Below, piece by piece: positions 12,936-58,000 of a stretch of DNA of 64,000 nucleotides. The translations under genes and the position numbers were made by a program. Below the pieces are notes generated by a model. That model ran no database searches. It was not told the DNA's origin and saw only the letters and a list, made by a program, of their open reading frames with translations. This DNA comes from Lingula anatina (taxonomy: Eukaryota > Animalia > Brachiopoda). Where the stretch lies: positions 48,490,401 through 48,554,400 of the forward strand of contig CM120641.1 of the NCBI GenBank assembly GCA_051362555.1, in the 5' to 3' direction. Within the stretch, counting starts at the first letter, position 1; each line of letters starts with the position of its first letter.

Positions 12936-15866
12936 ATTGTACCACCAGCGTTAGCGCTGGCGGTACACATGGTTTCGGTCCCGTCCGGATCGTTCCGCCG
13001 GCTCCGCCGGCTCCGCCGGCTCTGCCGGCTCCGTTGGCTCCGCCGGACGGCTACCGTTACCGCTTCTCCTCCTAGACGGTAAGGGCCCCCGTACCCATCT
13101 CATGGATTTAGGTCACCTATAATCTCAACTCGTTCCACGTAAAATTTGGGCTTTGTCGGTATTGGGGTCTGGGTGTGGCACTCATTGCAATGCACCCTTG
13201 TCTAAAAATGGCAAAATTAAATGCTAATTATCTACCCTACGGAAGGAGTTATGGGAAAAATTTCTATAGACGGCTTTCCAAAAGTCATATGTGTAGATTT
13301 CAAATATACCCTTGGATTTGACCTTTGACCTTTACTTCAAGGTCAAATGGGCCAAAATTTTCAAAAAAATGAAATTTTTTACGAAAAAAATTTTTTTTGC
13401 CCTGTTATTCAGACACCACACAGACTTAACCAATAATATTATTGGAAAGTGTTACTCTTCAGGTCATCTTTCATCTCTATGAATTTGGGGTCAATCGGTG
13501 CATTTTCACGGGAGTAACGGCCATAAGATACCGAAACTGAAAACTGTCTGTAATTCGGGAACCGTTAATGCTAGAGACCCATTCTTTTTTGCATTTTGTA
13601 GAGCATGTAAAGCCCAACACTGGAGGTGGTCTCGGTTTTTTTGTATTCCATACGGTTTTCGAGTTACGCTGTATCAAAAAGTACATATTGGTGGTAAAAG
13701 CAAAATGTGCAGTACGGTAATGGATAATAAATTTTGAACTCTGGAAAAATAAAACATAAGGCTTGGCAAAGCAGACAACTTGTGTTCAAAAATGACATTA
13801 TTTCATCAAATTTGAACTTCTGAAACTTCAGAGCACCTCCTATTTCAAGAATTTTGACCAAAATGACATTTTCTTTATTTTAATTAATTTTTTCTGTACG
13901 AAATTTAAGGCACATTATGGTAACTCCAAAATTATAACATTTAGTCCCTTATATCTCCAAAACTGGCAGAGATAGGTCCATAGTTACTATTGAAGTTGAA
14001 TAGGAAGTCATATACTGGCAATCTTACTATGACCTTGAAAGTGACCTTTGACCTACTTTTCACCATGAACTGAACTTTGCAAATTTTTTTTCCCTTTTAT
14101 CTCCAAAACTGGCAGAGATAGGTCCATAGTTACTATTGAAGTTGAATAGGAAGTCATATACTGGCAATCTTACTATGACCTTGAAAGTGACCTTTGACCT
14201 ACTTTTCACCATGAACTGAACTTTGCAAATTTTTCTTCCCTTTTATCTCCAAAACTGGCAGAGATAGGTCCATAGTTACTATTGAACTTGAATAGGAAGT
14301 CATATACTGGCAATCTAAATGTGACCTTAAAATTGACCTTTGACCTACTTTTCACCATAAACTGAACTTTGCAAAATTTGCTTCCCTTTTATCTCCAAAA
14401 CTGGCAGAGATAGGTCCATAGTTACTATTGAACTTGAATAGGAAGTCATATACTGGCAATCTAAATGTGACCTTAAAATTGACCTTTGACCTACTTTACA
14501 CCATGAACTGAATTTTGCAAATTTTGCTTTCCTTTTATCTCCAAAACTGGCTGAGATAGGTCCGTAGTTACTATTGAACTTGAATAGGAAGTCATATACT
14601 GGCAATCTAAATGTGACCTTAAAATTGACCTTTGACCTACTTTACACCATGAACTGAATTTTGCAAATTTTGCTTTCCTTTTATCTCCAAAACTGGCTGA
14701 GATAGGTCCGTAGTTACTATTGAACTTGAATAGGAAGTCATATACTGGCAATCTAAATGTGACCTCAAAATTGACCTTTGACCTACTTTTCACCATAAAC
14801 TGAACTTTGCAAATTTTGCTTCCCTTTTATCTCCAAAACTGGCAGAGATAGGTCCATAGTTACTATTGAACTTGAATAGGAAGTTATATACTGGCCATCT
14901 AAATGTGACCTTGAAATTGACCTTTGACCTACTTTTCACCATGAACTGAATTTTGCAAATTTTGCTTCCCTTTTATCTCCAAAACTGGCTGAGATAGGTC
15001 CATAGTTACTATTGAACTTGAATAGGAAGTCATATACTGGCAATCTAAATGTGACCTTGAAATTGACCTTTGACCTACTTTTCACCATGAACTGAACTTT
15101 GCAAATTTTGCTTTCCTTTTATCTCCAAAACTGGCAGAGATAGGTCCATAGTTACAATTGAACTTGAAAAGGAAGTCATATACTGGCAATCTAAATGTGA
15201 CCTTAAAATTGACCTTTGACCTACTTTACACCATAAACTGAATTTTGCAAATTTTGCTTCCCTTTTATCTCCAAAACTGGCTGAGATAGGTCCGTAGTTA
15301 CTATTGAACTTGAATAGGAAGTCATATACTGGCATTATAAATGTGACATTAAAATTGACCTTTGTCTTACTTTTCACCATAAACTGAACTTTGCAAATTT
15401 TGCTTCCCTTTTATCTCCAAAACTGGCAGAGATAGGTCCATAGTTACTATTGAACTTGAATAGAAAGTCATATACTGGCAATCTAAATGTGACCTTGAAA
15501 TTGACCTTTGACCTACTTTTTATCATGAACTGAACTCTGCTAATTTCTTTCTCTTTTAACTTCAAACTTGACAGAGATAGGTCCATAGTTACTCTTGAAC
15601 TTGAATAGGAAGTCATATACTGGCAATTTACTGTGACCTTGAAATTGACCCTTGACCTACCTTACGAAGAACTTAAATTTGATTGTACCATATATATTTT
15701 TTGCAATAGTTTAAAAATTCTTGTTGATTGCATTTTTACAGCTTGTCAAGCACAAAACTGGTGGCTGTGTCCCTTATTTTGTGTATGTGGGGGTCTATAC
15801 GAATGCGCTTGCTCCAGCTGGTGGTACAATATTCGGAGGCGGTATCGCCTCTCTGATCCTCTAGTT
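12936..15866 (+). mobile_element. Non-autonomous Helentron-type element (HINE/DINE-1-like) with an internal ~146-bp satellite array
   Basis: 14-bp subterminal inverted repeats attgtaccaccagc (12936-12949) / gctggtggtacaat (15817-15830); 5' hairpin; (cggctccgc)n microsatellite; 3' stem-loop gaggcg-gtat-cgcctc; ends ctagtt. Confidence 0.82.
13940..15660. repeat. About 12 tandem copies of a 145-146-bp unit inside the HINE
   Basis: aaaactggcagagataggtccatagttactattgaa recurs at about 13960, 14106, 14251, 14397, 14543 and onward. Confidence 0.95.
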
Positions 15867-24071: not shown

Positions 24072-27000
24072 CTTTTAGAATTGTTTTGGGGAATGAAGCT
24101 TTCAACTTTATTGTTTAAATGAAGAGAAAAATTATACATTGTGTCCTTGAAAAAAAAATACAGAGAGTACATTCTTTATTTTGCTCCATTCTAGAAATGA
24201 AGAGCTAATATTTAAATTATCTTTGCATTTGATAATAAGAACCAGGTATATGGTAAGGATTAAAAATTGTTTGCTTCATGAATAACATAAAGCTGACCAA
24301 TTTTTTTAATCTGTAGGTAATGGTGAAAAAGTTCATAGATAATAAGAATTTGACCTATTTTTGTAGAGTTGACACCCCATCTGAGTTGCGTATACGGAGA
24401 TGGGGCTTTAGCCTGGAAGAACTCCTCAAAGATCCCACGGGGATTGCAGAATTCGAAGAGTTCCTGAAGAAGGAGTTTAGTCAGGAAAACTTGCATTTTT
24501 GGTTAGCGTGTGAAGAAATCAAATACCTCCCAAAGTCCCTGGTAACAGAAAGGGTGCAGGCAATATACAGGTAAGCATCACTGGCTGTCTTTAAAAACAT
24601 GCAGAGGAAGGGAAATAGAGATCCTCTTCTGATTTTTTTAAGACTTAAGTGATTTTTATCATGTGACATTGAATATACATGTATATTTTGTGTATTGACT
24701 TGATAAAACTGTAGGGTAGAATGCAAGAGAGTCAACTACAGTGACTGATTCTGTCTATATATAATACACAGGGGCATATTTAGAAGACTATGAAATGACA
24801 GCACTTGTTAGTGCAGAGCTGATATAGACCTTGCTTTCAAACCTGTTATCAAACAGACTGATAATTGAAATTTCTCAGAAAGTCAGTTTTCCTGGAATAC
24901 CAATCTGGCACATGATTGAGCAAGTTTCCTTATTAACTGTGTGTTGATCAGATTATCTGTGTATAAACTGGTGCTGGAAATGTCTTCTTGGTGTGAGCTG
25001 TCAATATCCATGTAGCTAATGATGTCAACCCTAGGCCAGATAGGGACATGAAGCTATGTTGTTACTGAAGGTCAATGGGTCAATATCCATGTAGCTAATG
25101 ATGTCAACCCTAGGCCAGATAGGGACATGAAGCTATGTTGTTACTGAAGGTCAATGGGTCAATATCCATGTAGCTAATGATGTCAACCCTAGGCCAGATA
25201 GGGACATGAAGCTATGTTGTTACTGAAGGTCAATGGGTCAATATCCATGTAGCTAATGATGTCAACCCTAGGCCAGATAGGGACATGAAGCTATGTTGTT
25301 ACTGAAGGTCAATGGGTCAATATCCATGTAGCTAATGATGTCAACCCTAGGCCAGATAGGGACATGAAGCTATGTTGTTACTGAAGGTCAATGGGTCAAT
25401 ATCCATGTAGCTTATGATGTCAACCCTAGGCCAGATAGGGACATGAAGCTATGTTGTTACTGAAGGTCAATGGGTCAATATCCATGTAGCTTATGATGTC
25501 AACCCTAGGCCAGATAGGGACATGAAGCTATGTTGTTACTGAAGGTCAATATCCATGTAGCTAATGATGTCAACCCTAGGCCAGATAGGGACATGAAGCT
25601 ATGTTGTTACTGAAGGTCAATATCCATGTAGCTAATGATGTCAACCCTAGGCCAGATAGGGACATGAAGCTATGTTGTTACTGAAGGTCAATGGGTCAAT
25701 ATCCATGTAGCTAATGATGTCAACCCTAGGCCAGATAGGGACATGGAGCTATGTTGTTCCTATGGAGCTGTGTTGTTACCATGGAGCTATGTTGTTTTTG
25801 AAGGTCAATAGGTCAATGTGGAGAATTGGAAGTGTTACCATGGTGATGTTCTGCCATGTTCACTATCAGTTACTTCAGTGGAAAGTGATATAAATGTGAT
25901 CGTGGCTAATGTAGTTGGATTTGATTGGATTAGATTGGTTTTTAGGTAGTGATAATCTCCATGCTTTGATTGTATTACAGTACATTACAGAAGAATTAAA
26001 GTATTAGGTCAGGGGCCTAAACTTACACTGATGGGTATCTTATTTCTTCTTTCTGAAGATGGTCAAAAACGGAGAATGAATCAATAAAGATACTTTGGAA
26101 AACTGTCAGAAAATATCTGTGGATCTGCCTCTGTGGGTGAAATAGTCAAAGGACTGGAAATAATTAGATTTCAGTCTATTTTATAAAGACAAAACAAATT
26201 TGATGAATTTTGCAAGGACCAAAGTATAAATATCAAATTGTTTTGTAAATTAAATGTTTAATTAATTTATTCCCTCACTGTGTTTCAGTGCATTTCTGGC
26301 TCCTGGAGCCCCCCATGAAGTGAATGTAGACGGCAAGACATACGAGTTAACCCAGAAAGCTATAGAAAATCCAGACAGGTATATCAAGAGCTTTCTGCTT
26401 TTCCAAAGTTCTAAATTTCTATGGAATATCTGATATCTAACATAGTTTATGTCAGCAGATAAAAGATGTATTCTTTCCAGATGTTGAGATGTCATGATTC
26501 CAACAATTAATGGGCTGTGAATTAAGTTAGATCTTCAGAGCTGTAACTCAAATGTGACACCCAACTATTAGCAAACACATTATTTTTAAAAATTTTTAAT
26601 TCAAATTCTTTAATTCAAGACCTGTTATTTGCGTATTTAGGTTCACCTTCGATGCAGCTCAAAGTCACATCTTCCTCCTAATGAAAAAAGACAGCTATCA
26701 GCGTTACATGCGTTCAGAAGATTACCGGAATCTTCTAGAAACTGCTGCTCTACAACCTAATGCAAGGAAAGGAAGGCAAGTGATCCGTTTATTGATGTAT
26801 CATTTTGTGGTTGGTGTGAATGTGATAAATGCAGGCACTGGAATAAAAATGATGTGATTGTGAGAAAAGTTGGGCTTTTTCATTAGTATAACAGAGTAGT
26901 GTGGTTATTAATGGCTGTTAAACTTTCTATTCCAAACAAACTTGTTAATTTGCAGATTTTTCAACTTTGGAAGCACCAAATCCAAGAAGAGTCCCCAGCC

Positions 27001-35735: not shown

Positions 35736-38700
35736 CTGAAAGTTAAATGACTGAAAATGTACAATTTTATTCTTTTGACAGATCTCCATGGATTTTTTAT
35801 CAAACTTTACAAACTGGCAGTAGCCTTGATAAAATATTTCACATCCTCTTCTGAACAATTCCTACTGTGGCATGTCCATTGTGTAAGCAAAGTAAGTTTC
35901 TGAGCACCAGTTTCTTTGTATCATTTAACTTTTAGCACTGACAGTTAACAGGACTTCCTTCTTAATCTTGTTCTACACATTAAGTTAATATTACACCTTT
36001 CACAAATTTCTTTTCATTAAACAAATGGTGTTTTCATGACAAAAATGGACCCCAGATTGAACAGCAAACCAATACCATACCATATTCATCGTAGTAGAAC
36101 TCTTTTACAATTAATTCCCATTCAGCAGCATGATTAGTAAGGTCATCCTTCATGGTAGATTGTTCATTTCCATACAACTTCTGCCTGCAAATATATAATG
36201 ACTTCTTAAAACTGTGGTGATTGACTGTCACTTAACTTGAAAATATATGCTATTTCTACATAATTTCCTAACCAGTACTACCAGTATCTTAGGATAATTG
36301 CTACTAATTATTTGCTTTAATTGGTATTTCTAAATGTTATCAATATTTTTCAAAAGAGTAGGGTTACTGCTTAAATAAAGACTTACCAACTTTCAGGCAG
36401 ACTATCCAATGGTTTGAATACTATAATTATGGGATGGATGTTTGCCCCCACCATTCTCTTGATGCAAACAGACGGGAAACTGTGGACTGAGTGAAGGTTC
36501 TGGGGGAAAATAAACCACTGTGATCTTATCTTCACTTCACAAAACATTCTATTACTAGTGTATTTTCACCTTAACTTATAATTTACATTTTGAGAAAAAC
36601 GGAGAATAAATAAAGCACTCTTGTTTATACAGTTCAATTAAACTTCTACAGGTAGAAGTTCATTAAGTTGCAATACCATTATGTAAATCCATCTTGACTT
36701 GAATAAAACTGTACACATATATCAATTAAAATATCAAAATATGTCCTACATTTTCCATTGCTGTTTTGATTGCTTTGACAGTTATGCAGGAATATCCACT
36801 GTTATCTTTACTGTACCAGACCAGCTCATGGTTCAGAAGATGAGAGGCGACCTTGGCATGACCTTGCTCCACAGATTTGTCTATCTTCAGGTCTGAAAGT
36901 ATCAGAAATTTTGGAATTCCGGGAATTGAAGATACAAACAATGCACACATGTCAAAGAGACAACAACAGTTTCTTCAAACAAAAGTTAAACATATATTTT
37001 TCGACCCAATATAAGTCTTCTTTGAAGACAACTTATTTAGGGAATGAAACATCAAAACAGTATTGTGCATACATTTGTTGTAATTGTGAAGAATCTATTA
37101 TTGTAACTATCATATCATGGCTGATTTTTTGCTGTACACATAATAATGCCCCTGTATTAGATACTAGGTTATTAATGTATAAATTCATTACCAAATGTGG
37201 CATAAAGGTAGCATTAATGATTTGTTGAATGGTTACATACATGTACCAGTATTACCATGCAACAACACGGGGCAATTGTATATATGTCTTGAGAGATTAC
37301 ACAATGTATGCTTGGCACACTAAACTGTCATGGTTTTGCTTTTACTGGCATGCCCTTTTATTTACCTGGTTTGCAATGAATAAATTGCTGCCTCCCCGAG
37401 AGAATTTTTTTGATCAAGTGGTCCATCAACACAGGGGGTCCTATCAGCATTACTGGCCTGGGTTTTAAATCTGAAATTGAGAAAAATACTTTATACATTT
37501 AAGACATTTTTATTTGCAAAACGTAAAATGATTATTCCAAAAAATGAAATTCAGACACTGCTGTAGAAAATATCTACAAAGAATTTTCTGTACAACCCTG
37601 TAAAATTTTTTAAGAACACTAATTAGAATTAATTTAACAAAGACCAGCAGAATGCTGTTCTCTACTCACATTTGACTGGCTGAACTTCTGAGTATGGATT
37701 CCATGTGTGGAAATCACAGGTAAACTTGTCTGAAAGATAATTATGGACAGCTTTGATCTTGAAAATATAATCCTTTCAAAAACATTTGTTTGGCATTTAT
37801 ATTGCTTTTACACACTCTCTCTTTCTGAAGAGAGAGGGAAAAAGTAATTCCACTGTCAATCTTTTATTTCATTTTACTTAAAATTAGGAATAGAGAAAGG
37901 AAACCTGTTAAGGTTTGGCCCGTCTTAGCTGTTATGCACATCGGTGGAGATAGCGTTTTACTTTTTTGACTAGAGCACGCGCTTATAGTTAGTTATGTTC
38001 TGATCATTAAAAGTCACTAATTCCCGCAATGAGGTAAGACTTTATGAATCATTTAGTAATTTAAACAGTTAATAAGAACTTTATAAGTTGTAATTGTAAC
38101 ATAATTTAAGGATAATTTCTTAATTTGATGTATTTTGTTCATTTCAGTTTCTACGTGACAATTTCAATGACAAGCAAATAAAATAGATGTGAAAAAGACT
38201 AAAGAAGTTTGCTTATTCGTAACAGTAGAAACTCAGCGACGATTTAGTGAAAGATAATAGAAACTGAGCGACGATTTAGTGAAAGACGATCAGCATAGTA
38301 TTTAGAAAAGATGGCAACACAAGCGGAAATGTTACTGCTGCAAGCAGAACTGAAAAGGGTAGAGTCGGATATAGACCAAACCATGTGTGAGTTGGAAAAG
38401 CATTTTAATTTCACAAAGTCAAATATAAAAAAGACATCTACTCCCAAAAATGCACTAACATCTTGTGCCCCACTCACTTTGTGTGAGCAAACTACGATAG
38501 CAAAGGAACTCAGTAAACCAAGAATTCAGATTCAAGTATTTGAAGGTGACCCGATCAAATATGTGCTGTTTAAGAGACAGTTCAAAAGTAGAATCATAGA
38601 AACATGCGACTCTGACGATGAAAAACTGAACTATCTACTGCAATACACCAGAGGTGAGCCTCATGAAATTACGCTAGGATTCGCTCACTTAGATGCATCC

Positions 38701-41700
38701 ATTGGTTTCAAGGCCACATGGAAGGAATTTGAGAGAAGGTATGGGGACCAAGAACAGATTGCGACATCGTATATAAACCGTGCCTTACAGTGGCCAGTGA
38801 TAAAGCATGATGATTATGTCGCATTAGACAAATACGGCATATTTTTAAGGGAATGTGAATATGCAGTAAAAGAAATAGATGCCATTCCAGTCCTCGAGTA
38901 TCCCGATAACCTTAAGAGGCTAATGACGAAGCTGCCGCTCAAATTGCATGATAAATGGAGAAGCATAGTATATGAAAGGAAGGAAAGGGGACAGAAGATA
39001 ACCTTTCAGGTTTTCGTCGATTTTGTGCAGAAAGAAGCACGAAAATTGGCTGACCCCATTTTTGGAAAGGTTCCACCGCCACCAGAGAGACCTATACCAG
39101 CACCAAGGAGAAGAGTTCCAGCACAAACAGTACTGTCTAGTGCCTCTGCATCCAGCAACGAAAGACACGTTCACAAGTGTATATTATGCAAGGAACAACA
39201 TAAACTTCACCAATGCCCAGAAATGCAAGAAAAGACAATGGATGAAAGAATCGGCATTATAAAGAATAATGGGTTATGTTTTGGGTGCCTTGCATATGGT
39301 CACAGAAAACATGAATGCAGAAGTAAAATGAAATGCCAAAAATGTAACTCTTATCATCCAACAATTCTACATGATGACAATTACACTAGTAAAGTAGTGG
39401 GAGCAGCTGTATGCCATACCACCCACAGTTCTGAGAATGTGCATTCCATGATAGTGCCAGTTGTAGTACACCACGAGGGTAATCCAGACATTTATTCAGT
39501 GGTATATGCAGTGCTAGACGAGCAGTCAGATGCCTGCTTTGTAAAGTCCTCGACCCTCAGTGAACTCGAATGTAAAGGGAAGCATGTAGACATCAGACTT
39601 TCAACCATACTTGGAGAAAAAACCGTCCCGAGCAGGAAAGTTAGAGGACTTGTTGTGAGAGGTCTGAACCAAGAGACATTGATTGAGCTCCCAGATACAT
39701 ACTCCAGAGACTCCATTCCAGTTAAGCGATCACAGATACCCAGACCAGAAACTGCTAAGAAATGGCCACACTTGCACTCAATTGCTGATAAGATTACTCC
39801 TTATCGCCCAGACATAGAGGTAGGACTGCTGTTGGGAGTAAACTGTATGAAAGCCATTAGAGGTCTGGAGTACATACATGGTAGAGGAGAGGAGCCATAT
39901 GCATACAGATGTAACCTAGGTTGGGGTATAGTAGGGCCAGTGGACAAATCAAGACCCATAGATGAGAACAAGAGCTTTGGAACACATGCCTTTGCCTTTA
40001 GAACACAAGTGACAGAGATCAGCCCCGCTGAGGTTTGCAGTCTCTTTGACCAAGGTTTCGACCAACAGAAAGATGAGAAGTTAAGCCTTCAAGACCAGAA
40101 GTTCATGAAGATTATGGAGGAAGGCATACATTTCAACGAGGGATTTTACGAGATGCCACTACCATTTAAAGATGGACATCCAGCATTGCCAAACAACAAA
40201 CCAGCAGCTGAGATCAGGCTAGAGCAGCTAAGGAAAAAGCTAATCCACAACCCGAAGTATTATGAGCACTATAACAGTTTTATGCAGGACCTCATAGATA
40301 AATGCTATGCAGAAGAATCACCTCATGAAGATGGAGGTTGGTACTTACCACATCATGGTGTATATCACCCCAAGAAACGTGAGAAATTACGAGTGGTGTT
40401 TGATGCCAGTGCAAAACGTGAAAATGTTGCGCTAAACGACTGCCTGTTGAAAGGACCTGATCAGAATAACTCGCTCATAGGTGTTTTATTGAGGTTTAGA
40501 GAGCAGCCAGTAGCAATCATGGGTGACATGGAGAACATGTTTCACAGGTTTAAAGTGAAAGAAGAGGATAGAAAGTTTTTACAGTTCCTATGGTGGAAAG
40601 ACGGTGACCTCAGTAGTAATCCCATCACACACAGAATGACGTCTCATATATTTGGAGCGATAAGTTCACCAGCATGCGCATTGTATGGACTGAGGAAATT
40701 AGCAGAGGACTACCAAGATGAGTATTCACCAGACGTCATTGCCTTTCTTAAGAATGACTTCTATGTAGACGATGGACTCAAGAGCATCGAGTCAAGTGAA
40801 GAAGCTATACGTCTTGTTAGAGAAACAAGAGAGCTGCTGAACAAAGGTAACCTAAGACTTCACAAGCTAGTATCAAACAACCGTGAAGTGATGAATACAA
40901 TCCCAATGTCAGAGAGAGCCAAAGAAATGAGAAACATTGACCTTAACAGAGACACAATGCCAATATGCCCAGCTTTAGGAGTACAGTGGTGTGTAGAAGC
41001 GGACAGTTTTCAGTTTAAGGTCCAGATCAATGATAAGCCATTAACAAGAAGGGGAATTCTCTCCACTGTAAGTTCCATATTTGACCCTTTAGGCCTTGTC
41101 TCACCATTCATCCTTGCCGGTAAGAAAATTCTCCAAGAGCTATGCAGAGACGGTGCAGAGTGGGATGATCAAGTGCCAGAGAGTATTAGATACAGATGGG
41201 AAAGATGGCGCTCAGATTTGCTGAACTTAACCAAGTTGAATATACCACGGTGCTATAAGCCAAATGATTTTGGTGAAGTGACTACTGCAGAACTTCATCA
41301 CTTCTCAGATGCCAGTGTAGAAGGCCTAGGTCAGTGTAGTTACTTGAGACTTAAAAGCAACACAGGAAGAATAGCAACCACATTAGTTATGGGCAAGTCC
41401 AAGGTAGCTCCCTCTAAACCAGTGACAGTCCCACGCTTAGAGTTGTCAGCAGCAGTGATGTCTATAAAGGTGGGGACCTTTCTTGCCAAGGAGTTAGAGT
41501 ATGAGGACATCACCCATGTGTATTGGACTGACAGCAAAGTTGTTCTAGGGTATGTCAATAATGATGCTAAGAGATTTCATGTCTTTGTAGCAAATAGAAT
41601 ACAACAAATTAGAGAAGTCAGTCAGCCATCCCAATGGAGGCATGTTAAGTCCAGTGACAACCCAGCTGATATAGCCTCCAGGGGAACAGGTGTGACAGAG

Positions 41701-44700
41701 CTACTACAGAATGAACAGTGGTGGAGTGGGCCAGACTTTCTGCGCATTGATGAACCACTATCTACCACTGATACCCAATTCAGACTAGCACCAGATGACC
41801 CAGAAGTACGCAAATCTGAAGTCAATGTATTTGCTACTAAAGTAGAAACCAACCACGATCACTTGTCTGATGTATTGAAAAGGTTTTCTTCCTGGAACAG
41901 AGCAACACGAGTTGTTACGTGGTGTTTACGATTCATACAGAAGCTGAAACAAGCTAAGAACAGGAAATCTACACAGCAGAACACAGTTGAGACCAGCAAT
42001 GAACCGTTGAATGTTCAAGAAATACAAGTGGCAGAAAAGATCATTCTCAAGTCAACACAGACTGCTACATTTGAGAAGGAAATTGCAATACTGAAAGCAA
42101 TTAACAGAGAAGATAACAGTGAACACACAGAGAGAAAACAGGCAAGATATCGCAACAAACAAATCAAGAAAACCAGTTCACTATACCGCCTAGACCCATT
42201 TTTATGTGAAGACGGACTACTCAGAGTAGGTGGTCGTATAAAGAGGGCAAATCTACCCAGAGAGCTTACACACCCAGTGATTCTGCCTAAGCATCATCAC
42301 GTTACAAATCTCATAATTGACCACTATCATACACGATGCGGACATTCAGGAAGTGGCATTACTCTTAATGAAGTCCGAGCTAGTGGTTATTGGATAATTT
42401 CTGGCCGTGCCAAGATTGGATCATATATATGGAAATGTGTGACCTGTCGTAAGCTACGAGCAAACCCACAGAGTCAGAAAATGTCAGATCTTCCAGCTGA
42501 CAGACTGGAACCAGCACCTCCATTCACCTACAGTGCAGTAGATTTCTTTGGACCATTCTATGTGAAGGAAGGAAGAAAGCAGTTGAAGAGATATGGTGCT
42601 ATGTTTACATGTTTAGCATCACGTGCTATTCATATAGAAGTTGCGTATTCACTCAGCACAGATTCTTTCATTAACTGCTACAGACGCTTTGTATGCAGGC
42701 GTGGACCAGTACGTCTACTCAGAGCAGACCGTGGAACCAATTTCATTGGAGTTAAGGAGAGCAAGAAACTGCCTTTATGGATATGGATCAGGACAAGATC
42801 AGGAGAGAACTTCTGAAAGACCATTGTGACTGGATTCAGTTTGAAATGAATGTTCCTCATGCTTCACATATGGGAGGCGTGTGGGAAAGGATGATCAGAT
42901 CAGCCAGAAATGCTTTATCAGGACTTCTCACAGCTCACAGTGACCGTTTAGATGATGATTCCTTGTCCACATTGTTAACTGAGGCAGAAGCCATAGTTAA
43001 CAGTAGACCTCTGACTTACATTGATACACAGTCACCAGATTCTCCAATGCCTTTGTCTCCAAATCAGCTCCTGACCCTGAAAACTAAGGTCGTGATGCCG
43101 CCACCTGGGAATTTCATAAGGAAAGACACATACCTTCATCGAAGATGGCGACATGTTCAATATCTAGCCAATGAATTTTGGAACAGGTGGAGAAAGGAAT
43201 TTCTTCCTACATTACAAGAGAGAAAAAAGTGGATCAAACAACATAGAGATGTACAAGTTGGAGATATTGTTCTCATGATAGATGACAGTGCACCAAGAAA
43301 TCAGTGGCCACTTGGTCGCATAACAGAAACCTTTCAAAGTGCAGATGGATATGTGCGTAAGGTCAAGTTGAAAGTTAGGGACTCTACATATGAGAGACCA
43401 GTGCACAAGTTAATTCTTTTGTTGACCGGAGAAGACCCCGTCGAGGAGCCAAAATAATTATTAACTGTGACCATAATGTCAGTTTGTTATGATTCTATGC
43501 TACAATTTGTGTAGATTTAATGAACACTTGTTTCTAAAGACAGTTACGTTGGACTATTTGTGTTTATGAGATTGCAAGGTATTTTATGTTTAAATACGGT
43601 AATTAACAGTAAGTTTTGATGTTCCTTAAAGGTGTTTAAGGTACGGTAATTCTTAATTTCCGAGCAAATATTTTTTTTATACGTAATGATAAGGTAAACA
43701 GTGTATATTGTGTAAATTGCTTTCACAATTTAGGGGAGCCATGTTAAGGTTTGGCCCGTCTTAGCTGTTATGCACATCGGTGGAGATAGCGTTTTACTTT
43801 TTTGACTAGAGCACGCGCTTATAGTTAGTTATGTTCTGATCATTAAAAGTCACTAATTCCCGCAATGAGGTAAGACTTTATGAATCATTTAGTAATTTAA
43901 ACAGTTAATAAGAACTTTATAAGTTGTAATTGTAACATAATTTAAGGATAATTTCTTAATTTGATGTATTTTGTTCATTTCAGTTTCTACGTGACAATTT
44001 CAATGACAAGCAAATAAAATAGATGTGAAAAAGACTAAAGAAGTTTGCTTATTCGTAACAAAACCCTTCTCACTTCTAAAACCTTCTATGAAATTTTATT
44101 TTTTTAACATTTCCCTGCAAAAACCAGCCCCTTTCATACTGTACCTTACTTCCACACAAAAATAGGAAGATAAAACTTTAAAATTAAAAAAAGAAGAAAC
44201 ATCCAGGCTTGAATACCTGTAAGTAATGTTACACTAGCACATGGATAATATCTATTCATTTATTTATACTTGTATATACTAGTAATAAAAAGTGATATAA
44301 GCATGTAGGCTTCAGCCTGATGTGTTATTTATAAAGCAGTAATTACTTTCTCTTGGATATCCTGTCAATCTCTTAGCCACCCTGATCCCTGCATTGAAAG
44401 GAGTCATGAAACACCTGGGGGGCAGCTGGTGTGTCTGAGAATCCTGGTCGCGCTTAGAACGCCGCATGTCCGGGTAGTTATGGAGTGATGGTGGACACTG
44501 CATTTTCTCCGACTCTTCTACAGCTCTGGAAACAGTGTTTAATGAGAGATAAAGTGACTGTGATATTACAACTTTTTGTTAGGTAAGACACTGTATTAAA
44601 TTTGAACTTGCAACAATCTATTATAGAATTTTGGCTAGTATGCTTTACTAGGGTGGTGCTAGCAATGTTTTTCGTTTAGCCAAATTTATACTTTTTCATC

Positions 44701-46125: not shown

Positions 46126-47121
46126 TGTTTTATAATTTGTTCAGTGTACTGAAAAGACTGATTAAAAATAAAGATTTTATGAATGGCCACATAAAAAATA
46201 TATGTATAGCCAGTTCAATTTTTACAGTAAACTAACCTACAAAGTACTAGGTAAATATCTACATTGCAGAGACTAATTCAAAGCAGAAATACTGAAACTT
46301 CAGTATTTAATAATTTACCTAATGAAAAAAGCATCTCCATTTTTACCTCTTGACAAAAGTTCTTGCAAAACTTGAAAACCTAAACAAAACAAGGACAATA
46401 TGCATGCAACATAAAAAACAAAGAATATGAAATCAAAGAAATTTCTTAAATTAAAAAAAAACCTTGATATTTAAGCGTGCAGTAAAAATGAAGAAGAGAT
46501 GAAACTGACCTACTGCGTTTCCCTGCACGGTGATTTGAACCTCTCCCTGTAGTTGCTGCAGAGTTTGTTTAGCTTGTGTCAACGTCTGCTCCCCCATCTC
46601 ACAGTGCTGACTGCACCCACTGGAGTCATTCCAACTCACCTGGAGGTACAACAAACTTGCAGGAATCTTAGCTTAAACACTGTCCAACATGTTACGTGTT
46701 AGGAAGGTAATAATTATGATAAGGCCTGAAGCTAGTTATTTCAAAGTGCGTTCTTTATCTTTAAAACAAGGCAGCAAAGCTGTCAAATGTACAGACAAAG
46801 AACAGAAAATAAAGATGCAAATAAGTGAAAAATTAAATTTTCACAAAAAACTGTTAAATTGCCAGAAAAATTTACCAAACAGACTGCGTTGCCTATTGAA
46901 GCTGTATTTTAGTCCAATGTTTCTTTCCTATAAGTTTGAGAACAGTAAGTGACATGATTTTCCTTAAATGTTGTTATTATTATTATTAATAAAATATTAG
47001 TAACATGGACATTCAGAAAATGTGACAAGCAAAAGTCTTCAAGATCATGGAACTTTAAAGTCACACCTTGAAAATGCCAATATGTGAAAAATTAAATTTT
47101 CACAAAAAACTGTTTAACTGC

Positions 47122-47159
<38 letters not shown>

Positions 47160-48976
47160 AAACAGACTGCATTGCCTACTGAAGCTGTATTTTAGTCCCA
47201 TGTTTCTTTCCTGTAAGTTTGAGAACAGAAAGTGACATGATTTTCCTTAAATGGTCATCATGGAAGCAGTGCCCAAAATAGGGGTTTCTTCAAATTTTAA
47301 TGTAACATTACATAATGTTTAACAGCATAATGACCATCAATTTTTAATAATAGAATATTAGTAACATGGACATTCAGAAAACGTGACAAGCAAAGGTCTT
47401 CAGGATCATAGAACTTCAAAGTCACACCTTGAAAATGCCAATATGTGAAAAATTAAATTTTCACAAAAAACTGTTTAACTGCCAGAAAAAATTACCAAAC
47501 AGACTGCATTGCCTACTGAAGCTGTATTTTAGTCCCATGTTTCTTTCCTGTAAGTTTGAGAACAGTAAGTGACATGATTTTCCTTAAATGGTCATCATGG
47601 GAGCAGTGCCCAAAATAGGGGTTTCTTCAAATTTTGATGCAATATTACATAATGTTTAACAGCTGAATGACCATCAATTTTTAATTATAAAATATTTGTA
47701 TCACAGATATTCAGAAAATGTGACTAGCAAAGGTCTTCAGGCCCATGGAACTTCAAAGTCACGCCTTGATAATGCCAAAATGTAAACAAGACAGCACTGT
47801 TCTGAAATGGGTTTATTTCCATTTTTAACACTTTTTTAACATAAAACAAAATAAACATTTTACTGCCATTTTTATATGACCAACTAAAAAAATTGATGAG
47901 ATGGGAAAAGTATCAATAGAACAGTGTTAAATGTCCAATTTCCTCCATTCTGAGATTCTGAACATAGTGGATGATTGAATCTGACAAACTGCAATGATAT
48001 GAGTTTATTTCCATTTTTGACACTTTATTACACAATACATGATAACAAGTTTACCATGTTTTTTACATAATCAACTAACAATGTTGTAAAGATGCAGGAA
48101 ATATCAAACAAACACTTTTAGGCATCTTATTAGTTAAATAATGAGACTGTTAACATGCTTAAGAATTGAATCTGAGGAAATGTGAAAAAAAAAAATTAAC
48201 TTCTAAAATAATGGCCCGATTATGCTGATTTTCGAACTCAACCTGCGTTTTAGTAAGATTGACCACTCCTGTGAGTATAATTACAATTGGCCAATCCGTT
48301 TTTCTTATATTGTGTTATCAGTGTTGCATTTATATTGAAAATAGTGAAAAAACAGCATAAATTCCCTCAAAATAGCCCAATCATGCTGATTTTCGAACTT
48401 GACCTGCGTATTATGAATATTCATCAGTTCTGTAAGTTTCAAGTCAAAAGGTAAAATGGTTTTCCACTTATCGTGTTATCGGTGCTGCTAATATATGCTG
48501 AAAAAAGTGAAAAAACAGCATAAATTACCTAAAAGTGACCCGATCATGCCGATTTTCGAACTTGACCTGCGTATTATGAATATTCATCAGTTCTGTAAGT
48601 TTCAAGTCAAAAGGTAAAATGGTTTTCCACTTATCGTGTTATCGGTGCTGCATATATGCTGAAAAAAGTGAAAAAACAGCATAAATTACCTAAAAGTGAC
48701 CCGATCATGCTGATTTTCGAACTTGACCTGCGTATTATGAATATTCATCAGTTCTGTAAGTTTCAAGTCAAAAGGTAAAATGGTTTTCCACTTATCGTGT
48801 TATCGGTGCTGCATATATGCTGAAAAAAGTGAAAAAACTGCATAAATTCCCTTAAAGTGACCCGATCATGCTGATTTTCGAACTTGACCTGCGTATTATG
48901 AATATTCATCAGTTCTGCAAGTTTCAAGTCAAAAGGTAAAATGGTTTTCCACTTATCGTGTTATCGGTAAAAGTGC

Positions 48977-49008
<32 letters not shown>

Positions 49009-52000
49009 AGACGCAGATGATGGCTATATGTACAGACACATCTGTGTCTGTACATAAAAAGTAGACCTTTAACAAACTTACAGCTTAATTAAATTAAACA
49101 CTGTCCTACATGTTACATGTTAGGAGATTTCTGCTTATGAACAGGGCAGAATCAGTTATTTCAAAGTGGGTCCTTTTTCTTTAAAAAAAACCTTTTTGGC
49201 TGTTAAGTTGACTTATTTTCAGAATTGCAAAGAACCCAGATCAAAACAAAACAATATTTAGTGGTAATATTGGAAAGAAAGGCACAATGACCTAGAAAAA
49301 AATGCATTTTATAAGATTGTAATATAAATATCTTTATCATAATTGTAGTTTTAGTTTAATATTCATTTTATACCATAAATGCAGCCTATCACAGGTGTCT
49401 ACACAGACACAGAGCTGAAGACAGTTGTCTACTCACAGCCAGCAGCTGCTTGTCTTTCAAATCCTGCAGTGTCTGTTTGGTGACGTGGGTGATGAAGATT
49501 CCAGTGTAGTTGCCACCATTGATTTCGCACTCTGTCTGCAGCTGCTCCGCGGACATGGTCTCAGTTGATGACGGGAACGATGGAATGCTGGGAAAAAATT
49601 TTTAAAAATAATGTTATTGGCAAATGTTCAGTGTAATATATATTAACTTCTATTCTGATAATTAAAAGATTAAATAAAAAAAAGAAAGAAAGCTTAATGA
49701 ACAAGGTAAGCAGGCCCGTAGCCAGGGGGGAGTTCGGGGGGTTCGAAAGAACCGCCCCTTTTGCTGGGAAAAGGTCCACTCTGGGTAAAATTTGATCTAT
49801 GTACATGAAGTTTTTATGGAAAAAGGTCCACTTTTTCAGAAAAAGAACCCCCCTATTGAAATTGCTATCTACGGGTCTGGTAAGTAAGGCCCTCAATTAC
49901 AAAGAAATACTGAAGCATGTAGATTGTTGGTGACTTCGCATAGGCTGCCCTATAAAGATGATCTAAAACGTACAATACTGCATATGTATCCAACTCATAA
50001 AACCCAAGTTTAAGAGCATACAACAGTCTTCGTATGGACGTTAATCCCTGTTACAGATATTACCTGTTCAGCTGGGGTAACCCTGCAGTACCAAATCCTG
50101 CAGATTTGTAAAATGGTGTCTTTTGGTTCTCCTCTTGTCCTGACAGTGGCGCCCCCTCTGAGTCTCCTGAATATATGAAAACACATATGTTATCTTAATA
50201 CATATATTGTAGAACTACAAGTACATCTAATATCAACCTTGATATAATTAGTTATGCAGTCACCTAGTAAGGATATATATATATACGTGTAGAATGGCAC
50301 TGTAGGCAAATATATCATGTCAATGTTGGTTTACATGTAACCTAGCTTAAAATAAAAAAATATTTTGGCAATACTTCAAGCCTCATTTCTCCATACTGTA
50401 CAATATTGCTCGTGTGCCTTGTTTCAATTACTGACAGTATGTGACACAATATCAGGCAGAACATTTCCAAAATGACTGAACAAAGTCACCAGTTGCCCGC
50501 TGAATATTGCATCACATAACATCAGTAATTGCACTGAGGCTCATGGGTTGGGGGGGGGGGGGGGGGGGGGGGCAGGGAGGGGTAGAATATAGTCCAACAT
50601 TCAGCACTTCTCAAGCAGTCAAAGTGGACACAATAAAATACGACACAGGTATGTGACTGACACCCTGTATTTCACATGACTATTTAGACGATAAAGTATA
50701 CAGACCTCCAGCCTTCCTGGCTGTCCTGTCATCATGTTCCACAGGTTTGCCTGTATCTTCAAAGTCCAGCCTGGAGAACAGCTGAGGAAACAGAACTCAT
50801 CAATTATCATAGATGATGTACACAAACCTGAATCTGTTTACAGCTGCTCAGATATACTCAGTACTGGGGTCAGTTTATTTGCAGGGTGAATTACAAATAA
50901 TGCTTACAAAATAAGACCAATAACAATAACATGAAATCCATAAATGGTGCTTCATTCTAAATTCTGGGCTATAAATACACATCTCATTCTTAAACTAAAA
51001 AGGGATGTAGAAGGTATTCCCAGCCCTCTACAAAGAGATACTTTTAGTATCTGTATTATGTTTTTTTCCTGACAATACAGCTTAAATCATAACTGAAATA
51101 AAAGACAGGCCACAGACAGTTTGAATAAGAACATTACTCATTAACATCTCAAAATGATAACAAATCTATTTAACAAACCTTTTCTTTCTTGAACACATTC
51201 TCAACAACACTGCATTGGTCTTCTGTATAGGTGGAGCCACTAGTAATCTCTGTACTGTCAGAAGTATAGGTGGCGCCAGCTGTCTCCAGGTCTGAGCGCT
51301 GGATAACGGAGAGTGTACAGGGCTCTACCCAGTGATGTTTATCCTTAATGGAATTTGAGGGCTAAAATATAAAATGCATTCAATATACAGTAAGACACAT
51401 ATAACATTTGCAAGCATAACATTTATTAGGGCGTATTCCCAGAGCTTTTAGATCGATCTATCCCCGTGGGGAGTCTCACTAGATTACTGTCAGATAATCC
51501 GGCCTAAATGTCCGTCCCGCCTACTACAAGCTATAAGGGGGTAATTAACTTTTGTGCCCACTCGGCTGACACCTATCTAGCGTGAACCCCCAGGGAGTTC
51601 TAAAGTAGATCGATCTAATCTCTGGGAATGGGGTCTTAGATTTGTCAACAAATGAGAATATATACATGTGAGTATTTTTAACTAATCCCAATACCGGTAC
51701 AACCATTGTTTAAGACAAATTCCTTACTGCATCTGACGACATTAGAGTAATACAACTGAAATGTATACGAATTACATACCTGAACTGTTGTGCTGTCTGT
51801 TCGCTGTAAGTTTCGACAGAAACGTTGTGTACGATCACAACTTGTTGGTGCTAAAATATAACAGAAAGACAAGCTAAATGCCAAATGATAAACCTAAACT
51901 ATCATTTCTTTTATCTTTTTTATGCCGTGTCATTAAGAACTCCAATTTTGACAATGGCAGGTTCCTTTTCTTTCAGTCTTTTGACATGTAAAAATATCAA

Positions 52001-55000
52001 AGATGGAGTCAAGTCTATCAATAAAATTATTTCTCAATCAATTAATGACCCAGAAACATCCATCAGCCTGGTGACGCTTGCTTACCTAAAGGGAAATCCT
52101 TGAAAGGGTCTGATTTAAAAGTAGCAACCTCTGGAGCAGGCGGGGAAGTCACCATGGCTTTTTTGCCAGGTTTTGTATTTATTATTTTGTGATGTTTCAA
52201 ATTTAGGGTCCGATTTCTCTGAAATATGAAAATGCATTGCAACCATTTAAACCAAATAAACCAAATTCATGGGTAGGATTTAGGATTAGAAAATGCATTG
52301 TGTAACAGCAAAATTTCTTTGTATTAATTGGCAAGAAAATTATCCCAAAAAATCTCACTAACAATAGCACAATGGTACAATTTTCTAAACAACCAAGATC
52401 AACAGTACAATTTCACATCATTCAACTTATTGTGCACTTAATGGGTTTCCACTATATTTTGAATTAAACTCTTTGTTATTCTGAGCCTTATGTTTCTAGC
52501 CACTGTGTCAGACAAGGCAGTATCTTAACATGAAAACCCTTAGAGAGAGCCTTCAAGTTGTTTTCATGGATTTCCAGATTCACATGTTTTAACCCTTAAT
52601 TCTATATATCTTGTATTGGACAGATTATACAACAACAAAAAACAAGGCAGCAAAGCTGTCAAATGTACAGACAAAAAAACAGGAAATAACTATGCACAAA
52701 ATAGGCTACTGTCAATTCTGATGCAAAAGTACATTATGTTGAACTGCAAATTCAACATTAAATTTTAATTATGCTCAACAGGTAATACCAATGTAAGTAA
52801 AATGTGTAACAAGCATAAGGCTTCAGGCCCATGGGAGTTCAAGTTCACACTTTGAAAATGTATAACTTCCAGAAAAAGAAGCCAATTAGACTACTTTTCC
52901 AACTCAGGCTGCATTTTAGCCCTGTATTTCTTTTTTGAAAGTTTGGCAATCATAAATAACATGGTTTTCCCATAATGGTCATCATGGCAGCAGCACCCAA
53001 AATTGTGTTTTCTTCTATTCTGATGCAATATTACATAATGGTTAACAGCATAAAGACCGTCAACTTTTGAAAATAAAATAAACGTATCATGGATTTTCAG
53101 AAAATGTGACTAGCACAGGTCTTCAAGCATATCTTGTGAAAAATTAAATTTTCACAAAAAAAAAACTGTTTAACTGGCAGTAAGAATTACCAAACAGACT
53201 GCATTGCCTACTGAAGCTGTATTTTAGTTGCATGTTTCTTTCCTGCAAGTTTGAGAACAGTAAGTGACCTGGTTTTTCTTAAATGGTCATTACGGGAGCA
53301 GTGCCCAAAATAGTTTTTTTGATGCAATATTACATAACGTTTAACAGCATAATGACCATCAATTTTTAATAATAAAATATTAGTATCATGGATATTCAGA
53401 AAATGTGATATGGGAAGGTCTTCAGGCCCATGGAACTTCAAAGTCACAACTTGAAAATGCCAAAATGTAAACAAGACAGCACTGTTCTGAAATGTTTTTT
53501 TTTAAACATAAAACAAAATTAACAGTTTACTGCCATTTTTATATGATCAACTAAGAAAAATATCAATATAGCAGTGTTAAATAACCAATTTCTTCCATTC
53601 TGAGATTCTGAACATAGTGAATGATTGAATCTGACAAACTGCTATGACATGAGTTTATTTCCACTTTTGAAACTTTATTACACAATACACGATAATAAGT
53701 TTACCATTATTTTTACAAAATCAACTAACAATGTTGTAAAGATGCAGGAAATGTCAAACAAACACTTTTACGTATCTTATTAGTTAACCAATGAGACTGT
53801 TAACATGCCTAAGAATTGAATGTGAGGAAATGTGAAAAAACAGCATAACTTCTAAAATAATGGCCCGATTATGCTGATTTTCGAACTCAACCTGTGTTTT
53901 AGCAGCATTGACCACTCCTGTGAGTTTAGTGACAATTGGCCTATCTGTTTTCCTTATATTGTGTTTACAGTGTTGCATATATGCTGAAAAGTGGGGAAAA
54001 AAGCATAACTACTAAAATAGTGGCCCGGTCATGCCGCTGTTCGAACTTGACCTCAATTTAGTGAGATCCATTACCCCAGCGAGTTTCATGACAACAGGCC
54101 TATCGTTTTTTTCTTGAAATGTGTCTACAGTGTTGCATATATGCTGAAAAGTGAAAACATCTTAAAAATGCCAGTTTGAAAAATTAAAAATTAAAGAAAA
54201 AATTACAAAAATATTCCACTAAAGCTGCCATTCAGTCTAGGTGCATAACCATGATATGAATCATCCAACTTGAGTTTAAACAGTGTAAACAACTCGCAGA
54301 AATATAATATATTTTGTTTTACTACAAAAAGGGCAGTCATAGCTATTATTCTGATATCTGGACTTTTCATCAGACCATGTGACATCCATAGATGGCTATA
54401 CTTTGTAATAATATCTTAAGAGATTATAACAAAAAAAAAAAAAAAAAAAACACTTTTTAGAAAGAAAATTAATTATTTGCCAAAAAGAACAGTCAAGTTG
54501 CAAATATTGCACAACAGGTAGTATCAATAAAAGTTAAATGTTACGTGTCCTTGGGAGTTATAAGTCCCACAATGAAAATTCCAGTACGTGAAAGATAAAA
54601 TTTCACAAAATGTACAACAGAATAACATTGTCAATAAGATTATAGTTTCAGGACCATATGTGAGAGTTTAAATTCACATAATGAAAATCCCAATATGTGA
54701 AAAAAGATGACAGTGCATAAAATAATATAATTACACAATGTTTAAAGACATAAAAACCAACACAACTCCTTATGTGGAAAAACAGAAAATGCACAGTGCT
54801 TCTGGTGGATGGGAGTTGAAAGTGATATCTTGAAGATGCTAGTGTTTGAAAAATAATTAAAAGAAAATGTAAAATAAAACAAAACAAAAAATTCCAATAA
54901 AGCTGCTATTCAAACTTTAAATCTAGCTGTCTAATTACTAACATGACTAACATTTACCTGCACAATAATCATCGCTTCCTAATTATATGACACAGTTAAG

Positions 55001-58000
55001 AGAGATATACCCAGGGGACTTTACAATGAAATCTCATCGTGTGTTTTATGTAATCTCATTTAATGGCCACTTGAAAAATTATTAAGCAAATTACTTTATG
55101 AACGTGTGTTTTATGTAATCTCATTAAATGGCCACTTGAAAATTAATTAAGCAAATTAGTTTGTGACCCTGAATTAATAAACTGCCATATACATTTATTG
55201 CACCATAGTTCACTCTATAGAACTGCATTGCTTCCAAAACAGAAAACAATCACACTGGTTTTCCAACACAAGCTGCACTTCAGTCTTATGAAACTTTTCA
55301 GTAAATTTGAGTATCATAAGTAACATGGTTTTCCCTTAATCGCTATCCTGGCAGCAGTGTCCAAAATACAGGTTTCTTCAACTTTCATGCAATAAACACA
55401 ATACTTAACAGCATAATGACCATCAATTTTTTATTAAAAAAAAAATAAAAGTATCATGGATATTCAGAAAATGTGATATGGGAAGGTCTTCAAAACCATG
55501 GAAGTTCAAAGTTCAAAGTTCAAAATGCCAAAATGTAAACAAGAGATAACTGTACTGAAATGATTTTCTTTCCATTTTCAACACCTTTTTACATAAAACA
55601 AAATAATCAATTTACTGTCATTTTTAAATGATCATCTGGGAAAATTGTCGACATAGGAAAAATATCAATAGAACAATTTTAAATGTCCAATTTGCTCCAT
55701 TTGCAGATTCTGAACATAGTGAATGATTGGATCTGACAAACTGCAATGATGAGTTCCTTTCCATTCTTGATACTTTATTACACAATGCATGATAACAGGT
55801 TTACCATCATTTTTATATAATCAACTAACAATATTGTTAAGAAGCAGAAAATGTCAAAACAACACTTTTACATATCTAATTAGTTCCATATTGAGACTGT
55901 TAACATGCCTAAGAATTAAATCTGAAGAAAAAAAAAACACTTATATACAAAAAGGCTAATAACTTCATCAAAACTTAACTGATCAAGCTTATTTTCAAAC
56001 TTGATCTGTATACTAGTCAGACTAATCACTGCTGTGAGTTGCAAGACAAAAGGCTGATTGGTTTTCCTTAAAATGTGTTATCAGTGTTGCATATATGCTG
56101 AATAAGGAAAAAAACAGCATAACAGTTGTAAATATAGTCCAATCAAGCCAATTTTCAAACTTGAAATGCGTATTATGAATATTCATCAGTTTCAATCCAA
56201 AAAGAAAAACATTTTACACTGATCCTGTTTTCCGTGTTACAAAAATGCTGAAAATTTTGAAAAAAAAAAAACATCATAACTTCCCTAAAATTGGCCGGAT
56301 CATGCTGAATTTCAAACTTGACCTGCGTATTATAAATATTAATCAGTTCTGTAAGTTTCAAGCCAAAAAGTAAAATGATATTTTACTTATCATGTTATCG
56401 GTGCTACATAAATGCTGAAAAAAGTGAAACAAGACAGCACTGTTCTGAAATGGGTTTTTTACCATTTTTAAGACTTTTTTAACATAAAACAAAATAAACA
56501 GTTTACTGCCATTTTTATATGACCAACTAAGAAAATTGAAGAGATGGGAAAATATCAATAAGACAGTGTTATATGTCCAATTTCCTCCATTATGAGATTC
56601 TGAACATAGTGGATGATTGAATCTGACAAACTGCAATGATATGTGTTTATTTCCATTTTTGACACTTTATTACACAATACACGATAACAGGTTTACTATC
56701 ATTTTTACAAAATCAACTAACAATGTTGTAAAGATGCAGGAAATGCCAAACAAACACTTTTACGTATCTTATTAGTTAAATAATGAGACTGTTAACATGC
56801 ATAAGAATTGAATGTGAGGAAATGTGAAAAAACAGCATAACTTCTAAAATAATGGACCGATTTTGCTGATTTTCCAACTCAACCTTCGTTTTAGTAAGAT
56901 TGGCCACTCCTATGAGTATTATGACAATTGGCCTATCTGTTTTTCACTTATCGTGTTATCAGTGTTGCATATACGCTGAAAAAAGTGAAAAAAAACAGCT
57001 TAACTTCCATAAAAGTGGTCCAATCATGCTGATTTTCAAACTCGACCTGTATATTATGAATATTTATCAGTTCTGTAAGTTTCAAGCCAAAGGGTAAAAC
57101 AGCTTTTCATTTATTGTGTTATCAGTGTTGCAAAAATGCTGAAAAAAAGTGAAAAAATAGCCTAAATTCAGTAAAAATAACCCAATCATGCTGATTTTCA
57201 AACTTGACCTGCGTATTATGAATATTCATCAGTTCGGTAAGTTTCAAGCCAAAAGGTAAAATGGTTTTCCATTTATGGTGTTATCGGTGCTGTATATATG
57301 CTGAAAAAAGAGAAAAATAGCCTAAATTTACTAAAAATGACCCAATCACGCTGATTTTCGAACTTGACCTGCGTATTATGAATATTCATCAGTTCTGTAA
57401 GTTTCAAGCCAAAAGGTAAAATCGTTTTCCATTTATGGTGTTATCGGTGCTGTATATATGCTGAAAAAAGAGAAAAAATAGCCTAAATTCACTAAAAATG
57501 ACACAATCACGCTGATTTTCGAACTTGACCTGAGTATTATAATTATTCATCAGTTCTGTAAGTTTCAAGCCAAAAGGTAAAACGGTTTTCCACTTATCGT
57601 GTTATTGGTGCTGCATATATGCTGAAAAAAGTGAAAAAACAGCATAAATTCCCTATCAGTGACCCGATCATGCTGATTTTCGAACTTGACCTGCGTATTA
57701 TAAATATTCATCAGTTCTGTAAGTTTCAAGCCAAAAGAAAAAACAGTTTTCCACTTATCGTGTTATCGGTAAAAGTGCACGGCGACGACGGCAACGACGG
57801 CGACGACGGCAACGACGGCGACGACGGCGACGACAGACGCAGATGACGGCTATATGTACAGACACATCTGTGTCTGTACATAAAAAGCAGAAAACACACT
57901 CTCACACCTACATGTACTGCTAACACACTAGCTGTCACACCTAACACACTGTCACATCTAACACACTCTCCCACCATATATTAGAAGCACACTAGCTGCC

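Follow-up and report, generated by a model that had tools for sequence, protein, structure and literature searches.

We identified, in a BEL/Pao retrotransposon of the brachiopod Lingula anatina, a putative primer-binding site that is not of the tRNA type and is complementary to a splice joint within the element's own LTR. Comparison of related sequences confirmed that the predicted pairing of the first 11 internal bases with the intron joint is a real feature, beyond chance, and a site that matches the splice joint proved to be a real feature of the whole lineage. Taking pairing in cis and in trans together, the spliced joint is very probably the primer of reverse transcription. How BEL/Pao reverse transcription starts has so far been assumed rather than tested, and the junction rule described below names the exact RNA expected on strong-stop DNA, so that the question becomes testable.

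The element and the site next to its LTR

The window (the whole stretch of DNA analyzed, 64,000 nt) holds a single BEL/Pao retrotransposon, spanning positions 37906-44060 (Table 1). Pao-type gag-pol domains are present (Pfam: PF05380, PF03564 and PF18701), PF05380 occurs in all 120 relatives among the matches listed, and the translation contains what we take to be RNase H motifs; a chromodomain was not found in the element with Pfam. The LTR size falls within the 0.2–1.2 kb range of BEL/Pao, and the polypurine tract and the 5-bp target duplication also fit this superfamily. The nearest database protein, labelled Lingula anatina, is 99% identical over residues 600–1100, and the next ones are at most 57% identical. 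Named protein hits came from cnidarians, echinoderms, molluscs, crustaceans and fish, and the element resembles the Sinbad/Sailor lineage by host range only. Because the LTRs are identical and the target duplication and polypurine tract are present, the insertion is probably recent. Despite the identical LTRs, the pol frame shifts inside the integrase (42756-42816); either this young copy is broken in the integrase or the assembly is wrong at these positions.

Table 1. Features of the retrotransposon and its borders, in window coordinates.
Feature	Position	Strand	Basis or remark
Left target-site duplication, 5 bp	37901-37905	+	identical 5 bases at 44061-44065
5' LTR, 319 bp, TGT...ACA	37906-38224	+	100% identity to 43742-44060 (319/319)
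Exon-1 part of predicted primer, 4 nt, TGAG	38030-38033	+	pairs with 38232-38235
LTR-internal GT-AG intron, 114 nt, donor GTAAGA, end TTTCAG	38034-38147	+	RNA reads; homologous introns in relatives
Exon-2 part of predicted primer, 7 nt, TTTCTAC	38148-38154	+	pairs with 38225-38231; inferred 3' end 38154
AATAAA poly(A)-type signal, 3' of acceptor	38177-38182	+	sequence
Non-tRNA primer-binding site GTAGAAACTCA, adjoining the LTR	38225-38235	+	11/11 complementary to splice joint; no TGG
Imperfect second copy of 38226-38254 (site and downstream bases)	38258-38286	+	first G absent, one base different
gag-pol frame: DUF1759, zinc knuckles, protease, RT with YVDD, RNase H, integrase start	38311-42816	+	PF05380 E 1.5e-44, PF03564 E 6.9e-08; translation
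Remaining integrase, different frame	42756-43457	+	ORF list; PF18701 E 1.5e-31
Polypurine tract	43732-43741	+	sequence; same tract precedes 3' LTR in many relatives
3' LTR; second intron copy at 43870-43983	43742-44060	+	identical to 5' LTR
Right target-site duplication, 5 bp	44061-44065	+	matches 37901-37905

The original prediction held that no tRNA site beginning TGG follows the 5' LTR, that the sequence directly adjoining it is instead complementary in all 11 positions to the joint formed by removal of the intron, and that the unspliced LTR still pairs with this site over 9 nt. Each of these points was borne out, down to the coordinates in Table 1, and recomputation again gave 9 nt for the unspliced form. 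Within the 64 kb window the 11-mer occurs unbroken at the site itself only. No tRNA gene was found in the window, and Rfam returned 6 weak matches in the region of the LTR, each scoring far under the threshold, and none at all in 13 relatives. A tandem duplication of 29 nt, with one difference, covers the primer site together with 19 bases downstream of it, and site-like words are repeated after the site also in L060, L044 and L048. Unrelated tandem arrays lie elsewhere in the window (4139-5011, 10257-11276, 13799-15630, 24921-25852 and 46812-57764, with units of 33, 30, 146, 79 and ~161 nt, respectively).

Site and splice joint in related families

A scan of metagenome contigs yielded 79 loci whose RT-RNase H region is 47–57% identical to the query, and the LTR regions of 55 of them were read by eye. 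The 22 loci in which a site could be placed and the donor-acceptor region was visible were curated and, together with the window element, make up 23 families. Set aside were 7 near-duplicates (L003-L005, L007, L008, L026 and L078), 3 intron-less loci, 11 half-visible or unclear loci, 3 with a 3' LTR only and 9 without a usable 5' end or a placeable LTR end. For matching, the site was fixed and every consensus-like donor-acceptor pair was tried. Sites were chosen by eye, LTR ends were set independently by both repeats in some loci only, and one donor spelling was admitted post hoc, for L030.

Covariation of the site with the LTR, which the original prediction had proposed to look for, was found: the site tracks the LTR joint of its own element, and swapped sites fail. 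The element's own canonical junction matches the site over 10–14 nt in 22 of the 23 curated families (10 nt in 5, 11 in 11, 12 in 3 and 14 in 3; mode 11), the match being composed of 3–7 nt of exon 1 and 5–10 nt of exon 2 across introns of 74–536 nt. When sites and LTRs were swapped between families, 12 of 506 pairs reached 10 nt, all of them between families that share or nearly share their sites. None of 100,000 permutations reached the observed mean (11.0 versus at most 5.9), and the exon-1 ends alone gave 106 matched bases versus at most 58 in 100,000 swaps. The junctions of the window LTR score at most 10 against the sites of the 22 other families, the 10 belonging to a family that shares 10 of the 11 bases. 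There are 20 distinct 11-mers among the 22 matching families, and no curated site begins with TGG (0/23), nor does a TGG site occur at any placed LTR end.

Kinship does not explain the match, because in L070, L075 and L079, a supported clade in our quick tree of relatives (which contains no named reference elements), the three sites all differ and each fits the joint of its own locus, and because the L030 site differs from the window site at base 11 and carries a compensating change in exon 1. In the same three loci (L070:1015-1030, L075:141-158 and L079:2154-2166) the site lies 2–4 nt from the LTR end, and the match is 14 nt long in two of them. The one family that fails is L025, with 5 nt; its acceptor reads GG in both LTRs. 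The donor side and exon-2 start of this locus do fit the site (6+5 nt; L025:592-974 and its 3' LTR), and it is either a dead copy or a case of non-canonical splicing. A loose automatic scan, run blind, brought 24 of 54 loci to at least 10 nt versus 269 of 2862 swapped pairs; it is noisy, as among its 24 hits L059 lies off any LTR end and L025 is shifted by one base. Seven pattern hits were obtained in viral contigs, none of which was confirmed.

We also examined 24 previously unexamined loci, 12 of which have a mid-contig LTR and served as a held-out set. Under the fixed rule 4 of the 12 match, over 11, 11, 10 and 14 nt (L016, L021, L038 and L059, respectively). L021 resembles L023 and L059 resembles L065, so that two of the four matches are akin to known families. 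When donors were relaxed afterwards to any GT, five more loci matched over 11, 11, 12, 10 and 14 nt (L024, L052, L034, L049 and L073), giving 9/12 in total; all five have AG|GT donors, and L024 and L052 belong to the same family. L050, L055 and L063 matched under neither the fixed nor the relaxed-donor rule, and L061, like L063, is without a settled joint match. Seven half-visible loci fit on their visible side: in L002, L010 and L023 the donor side brings the match to 11 nt, and in L028, L037, L071 and L044 a stretch of 5–7 nt matches behind the acceptor, although L044 has no fitting donor in its visible LTR. The half-visible L017, L033, L054 and L051 gave no match.

In the helix, counted from the LTR edge, Watson-Crick pairing covers bases 1–10 in 22/22 families (by selection), base 11 in 17/22, base 12 in 6/22 and base 13 in 5/22, and the base beyond the primer 3' end pairs in 0/22. 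In 19 of 23 families the base next to the LTR is the first one paired, and in 3 more the helix begins within 4 nt of the LTR, one LTR end being unplaced. Several pair types occur per helix column, and a core free of G-U pairs would fit a site that is copied anew from the primer in every cycle.

Use and loss of the LTR intron

To observe the intron in RNA, four runs (X1, X4, X5 and X7), chosen by their species label, were mapped on 37700-43741, about 6%, 6%, 25% and 6% of each being read. The junction reads that had been proposed as evidence were obtained in one run of the four: in X4, 12 reads with 11 start places skip exactly the 114-nt intron with GT..AG ends, and no such junction was listed in X1, X5 or X7. 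All of these reads have their first mate on the minus strand, an orientation that corresponds to sense RNA in most stranded libraries. At intron positions 38052 and 38083 no reads of the junction orientation were found, and 8 and 5 reads, respectively, had the opposite orientation. In addition, 16 reads run from the LTR into a different flank, none reach gag, and depth is zero over 38306-39719, which assigns the junction reads to another LTR copy. Since they extend at least 42 nt on the shorter side, the transcript of that other copy does not start at 38030. The 114-nt LTR intron is thus real and its splice sites are used in RNA of another LTR copy. An intron-less genomic LTR copy could yield the same junction reads.

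A separate splicing event concerns the surroundings of the element. Reads in X1 (4), X4 (10) and X7 (9) exit at 37729 and continue as 44347 onward, with GT/AG ends on the minus strand; the entire element lies antisense within this intron (37730-44346, minus strand) of an expressed host gene.

Relatives that have lost the intron provide further information. L029 is missing precisely the intron that its sister L001 carries, the 3' LTR of L026 is missing precisely that of its sister L035, and each holds an unbroken 11-nt match to the site. Since the two LTRs of L026 agree to only 88%, this contig may join two copies. L047 and L042, which form a supported clade placed on long branches, are likewise intron-less, with unbroken matches of 13 and 10 nt. 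An unbroken primer match was found only in L029, L042, L047 and the 3' LTR of L026, and the match is split by the intron in 22 families. Exact loss would be the expected outcome of an RNA cycle in which the 3' LTR copy is spliced, and, at the level of DNA sequence, it confirms the predicted junction in two more lineages. As the intron-less loci show, the intron can be dispensed with, but the match is retained. Two side observations were made in this context. In the element of L047 (L047:55-520), whose LTR is intron-less and has the 13-nt match, a donor-like GTAAGT lies in the leader, 3' of the primer site, and the intron of this element may have moved or been replaced. The 3' LTR of L058 (6269-6290) reads like the spliced form of an L015-type junction, the primer site being outside the contig.

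Candidate priming mechanism and its alternatives

We consider it probable, judging from the sequence patterns, the predicted folds and the analogy with Tf1, that the spliced joint is the element's own primer, which would fold back in cis and be freed by a predicted RNase H-type cut as in Tf1. Transcription would start within the 5' LTR, ahead of the donor, and the host spliceosome would remove the intron, in keeping with the junction in RNA of another copy and the precise loss in the DNA of relatives. With the site, the 3–7 nt of exon 1 and 5–10 nt of exon 2 would then form the predicted helix of 10–14 bp, which stops at the border of the LTR. Cleavage directly behind the last base pair would, as in Tf1, leave a 3' end facing U5, from which RT may copy U5 and the rest of R before jumping to the 3' LTR. 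The intron would be inherited only when the 3' LTR copy is unspliced, as it presumably is in most cases; a spliced 3' LTR copy would give progeny with an intron-less LTR and an unbroken primer, such as the LTRs found here. Because a poly(A) signal follows the acceptor closely, splicing should be favoured in the 3' LTR as well, an outcome that the model of priming in cis must avoid.

Folding predictions agree in part with pairing in cis. In the spliced leader of the window copy the cis helix has a predicted probability of 0.98. Across families it is predicted at 0.6 or more in 13/17 families with a short exon 1, in 8/17 with an exon 1 of 30 nt and in 2/16 when unspliced, and at 0.12 or less in 3/17 families. 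The energy of a 10–11 bp helix is about -8 to -17 kcal/mol.

Of the self-priming originally predicted for this lineage, the splicing-dependent form stood, as argued by the covariation, the held-out loci, the junction reads and the intron loss; the form starting from an unspliced Initiator did not stand as a general rule.

The most serious alternative keeps the same spliced joint as primer and places it in trans: a spliced LTR transcript would anneal to an unspliced full-length template RNA, the primer coming from a short LTR transcript that ends at the LTR poly(A) signal or from a second packaged RNA. We regard this as unlikely, though well short of negligible. Persistence of the intron over long branches of the tree would be explained without extra rules and more simply than in cis; spliced transcripts do exist from a copy that has no such site; in 15/17 families a poly(A) hexamer is present between the primer end and the LTR end, 6–105 nt past the former; and a conserved cis scaffold like that of Tf1 was not found. 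Against these points, a helix of 10–11 bp is weak for intermolecular pairing, most spliced leaders are predicted to form the cis helix, and Tf1, the tested precedent, acts in cis in the parts of its literature covered here (PMC7175516; bioRxiv 10.1101/2022.12.06.519325).

It is improbable that the helix serves regulation or packaging (as a mark of spliced RNA, or in dimerisation or translation control) while another primer is used. Such a role would suit the dispensability of the intron in the L042/L047 clade and in L029; however, the helix starts at the LTR edge, which is primer-site geometry, its length peaks at 11, placed LTR ends carry no TGG site, and the intron-less LTRs keep an unbroken match of 10–13 nt. 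Self-priming over 9 nt by unspliced RNA, starting from the Initiator-like TCAGTT at the acceptor, is highly improbable. Unspliced RNA does pair over 9 nt in the window element and 8 other families, and over 10 nt in one, because exon 1 ends in AG like the intron; but in 10/22 families the unspliced match is 5–7 nt versus 10–14 nt when spliced, and the site there follows exon 1 and not the intron end. Together with the few unspliced helices predicted (2/16 at 0.6 or more), this contradicts the Initiator variant as a lineage-wide rule. The CCA end of a tRNA needs a site beginning with TGG, a start seen in 0/23 curated sites. Priming by a host tRNA or tRNA fragment, with a coincidental LTR match, is what the ICTV profile of the family would suggest (PMC8742986) and is scarcely credible here, as 20 different sites each follow their own LTR joint.

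Returning to the spliced joint as a cis-acting primer, the closest known systems are Tf1/Tf2 of Schizosaccharomyces pombe and the Tf1/sushi group (Ty3/gypsy chromoviruses; plant Tcn1), which, in the parts of the sources covered, also have no tRNA site and use ~11 nt of LTR-derived RNA complementary to a site by the 5' LTR (PMC7175516; bioRxiv 10.1101/2022.12.06.519325); in the elements studied here the complement is 10–14 nt and arises after splicing. The Tf1 primer is given there as 11 bases, with RNase H cutting between bases 11 and 12 (PMC7175516), and two duplexes are described as flanking the primer helix (bioRxiv 10.1101/2022.12.06.519325). In geometry and length, the helix of our families agrees with this primer. 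Two observations bear on a primer at the very 5' end of the RNA: in our families pairing stops sharply after 11 nt, and the shorter side of the junction reads of another copy measures 42 nt or more. Unlike Tf1/sushi, these elements belong to the BEL/Pao superfamily, and their predicted primer is split by a spliceosomal intron and complete only after splicing. Nor was the three-duplex 'pretzel' that the covered part of the Tf1 account describes detected: in a coarse energy test of 17 families, Tf1-like flanking duplexes did not show up (own -8.9 versus swapped -9.4, and -12.7 versus -12.5 kcal/mol). The lineage would work like Tf1 self-priming, yet it is not a member of the Tf1/sushi group.

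Self-priming has been described for Tf1/sushi and Tcn1 and predicted, from unbroken matches of at least 10 bp, for the Ty1/copia elements TAR, Houba and Osr-1 of plants, as far as the covered part of PMC6317226 goes. The latter share with our elements the complementarity of LTR and site, whereas a rule of unbroken matches of at least 10 bp would recover 1 of our 22 families with an intron. In the fungal GalEa copia elements, too, a conserved non-tRNA feature, the Conserved Hairpin Site, replaces the tRNA site; it is a local palindrome or hairpin for which the part of the paper covered reports no LTR complement found (PMC5445492), in contrast to the long-range match with a splice joint. The ICTV profile of Belpaoviridae, which calls replication poorly understood, gives an 18-nt site for the 3' end of tRNA-Arg or tRNA-Gly; our elements agree with it in LTR size, gag-pol domains and polypurine tract, whereas the window site begins GTA and a tRNA-type site occurs in 0/23 curated families (PMC8742986). 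Terms for the PBS or primer site are absent from the main text of four BEL/Pao surveys (PMC554778, PMC3118150, PMC6238403 and PMC8556966). No description of BEL/Pao self-priming or of a splice-built primer appears in the titles and abstract beginnings of the open-licence papers searched.

If the proposed mechanism is true, self-priming arose in a third LTR superfamily, with an exon-exon joint as primer, a form without description in the open-licence literature searched. The host spliceosome would be a required replication step and a possible control point, and the failure of site-finding programs to detect a primer site in such BEL/Pao elements would be explained. The sequence rule would locate LTR ends and introns in unannotated genomes, and the elements would offer a natural model of intron retention and of exact intron loss through an RNA cycle. 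More tentatively, we suggest an animal-wide BEL/Pao lineage whose primer is built by the spliceosome from a first exon no longer than 3–7 capped bases and 5–10 bases of exon 2, where splicing near the cap, but not in the 3' LTR, would license priming and pass the intron on, and where the splicing state of the host would gate mobility.

Sequences upstream of the predicted primer were also analyzed. A predicted fold extends the pairing upstream (38014-38029 with 38236-38251), and this extension was rejected as a family-specific feature: for the first 20 nt beyond the core, own pairs gave -7.97 versus -7.72 kcal/mol for swapped ones, and 6931 of 20,000 permutations were equally good. Because the extension is not family-specific, and marginal at 25–60 nt, the start site was not placed from it. 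A promoter motif conserved at a fixed distance was likewise discarded as a candidate, the search giving only a weak GG/CA bias 3–5 nt before the 11-mer. Across 22 families this weak GG(N)CA-like bias lies 12–16 nt upstream of the primer 3' end and is somewhat sharper when anchored on the primer (3.17 bits) than on the donor (2.46 bits); it is possibly a start-site or splicing signal.
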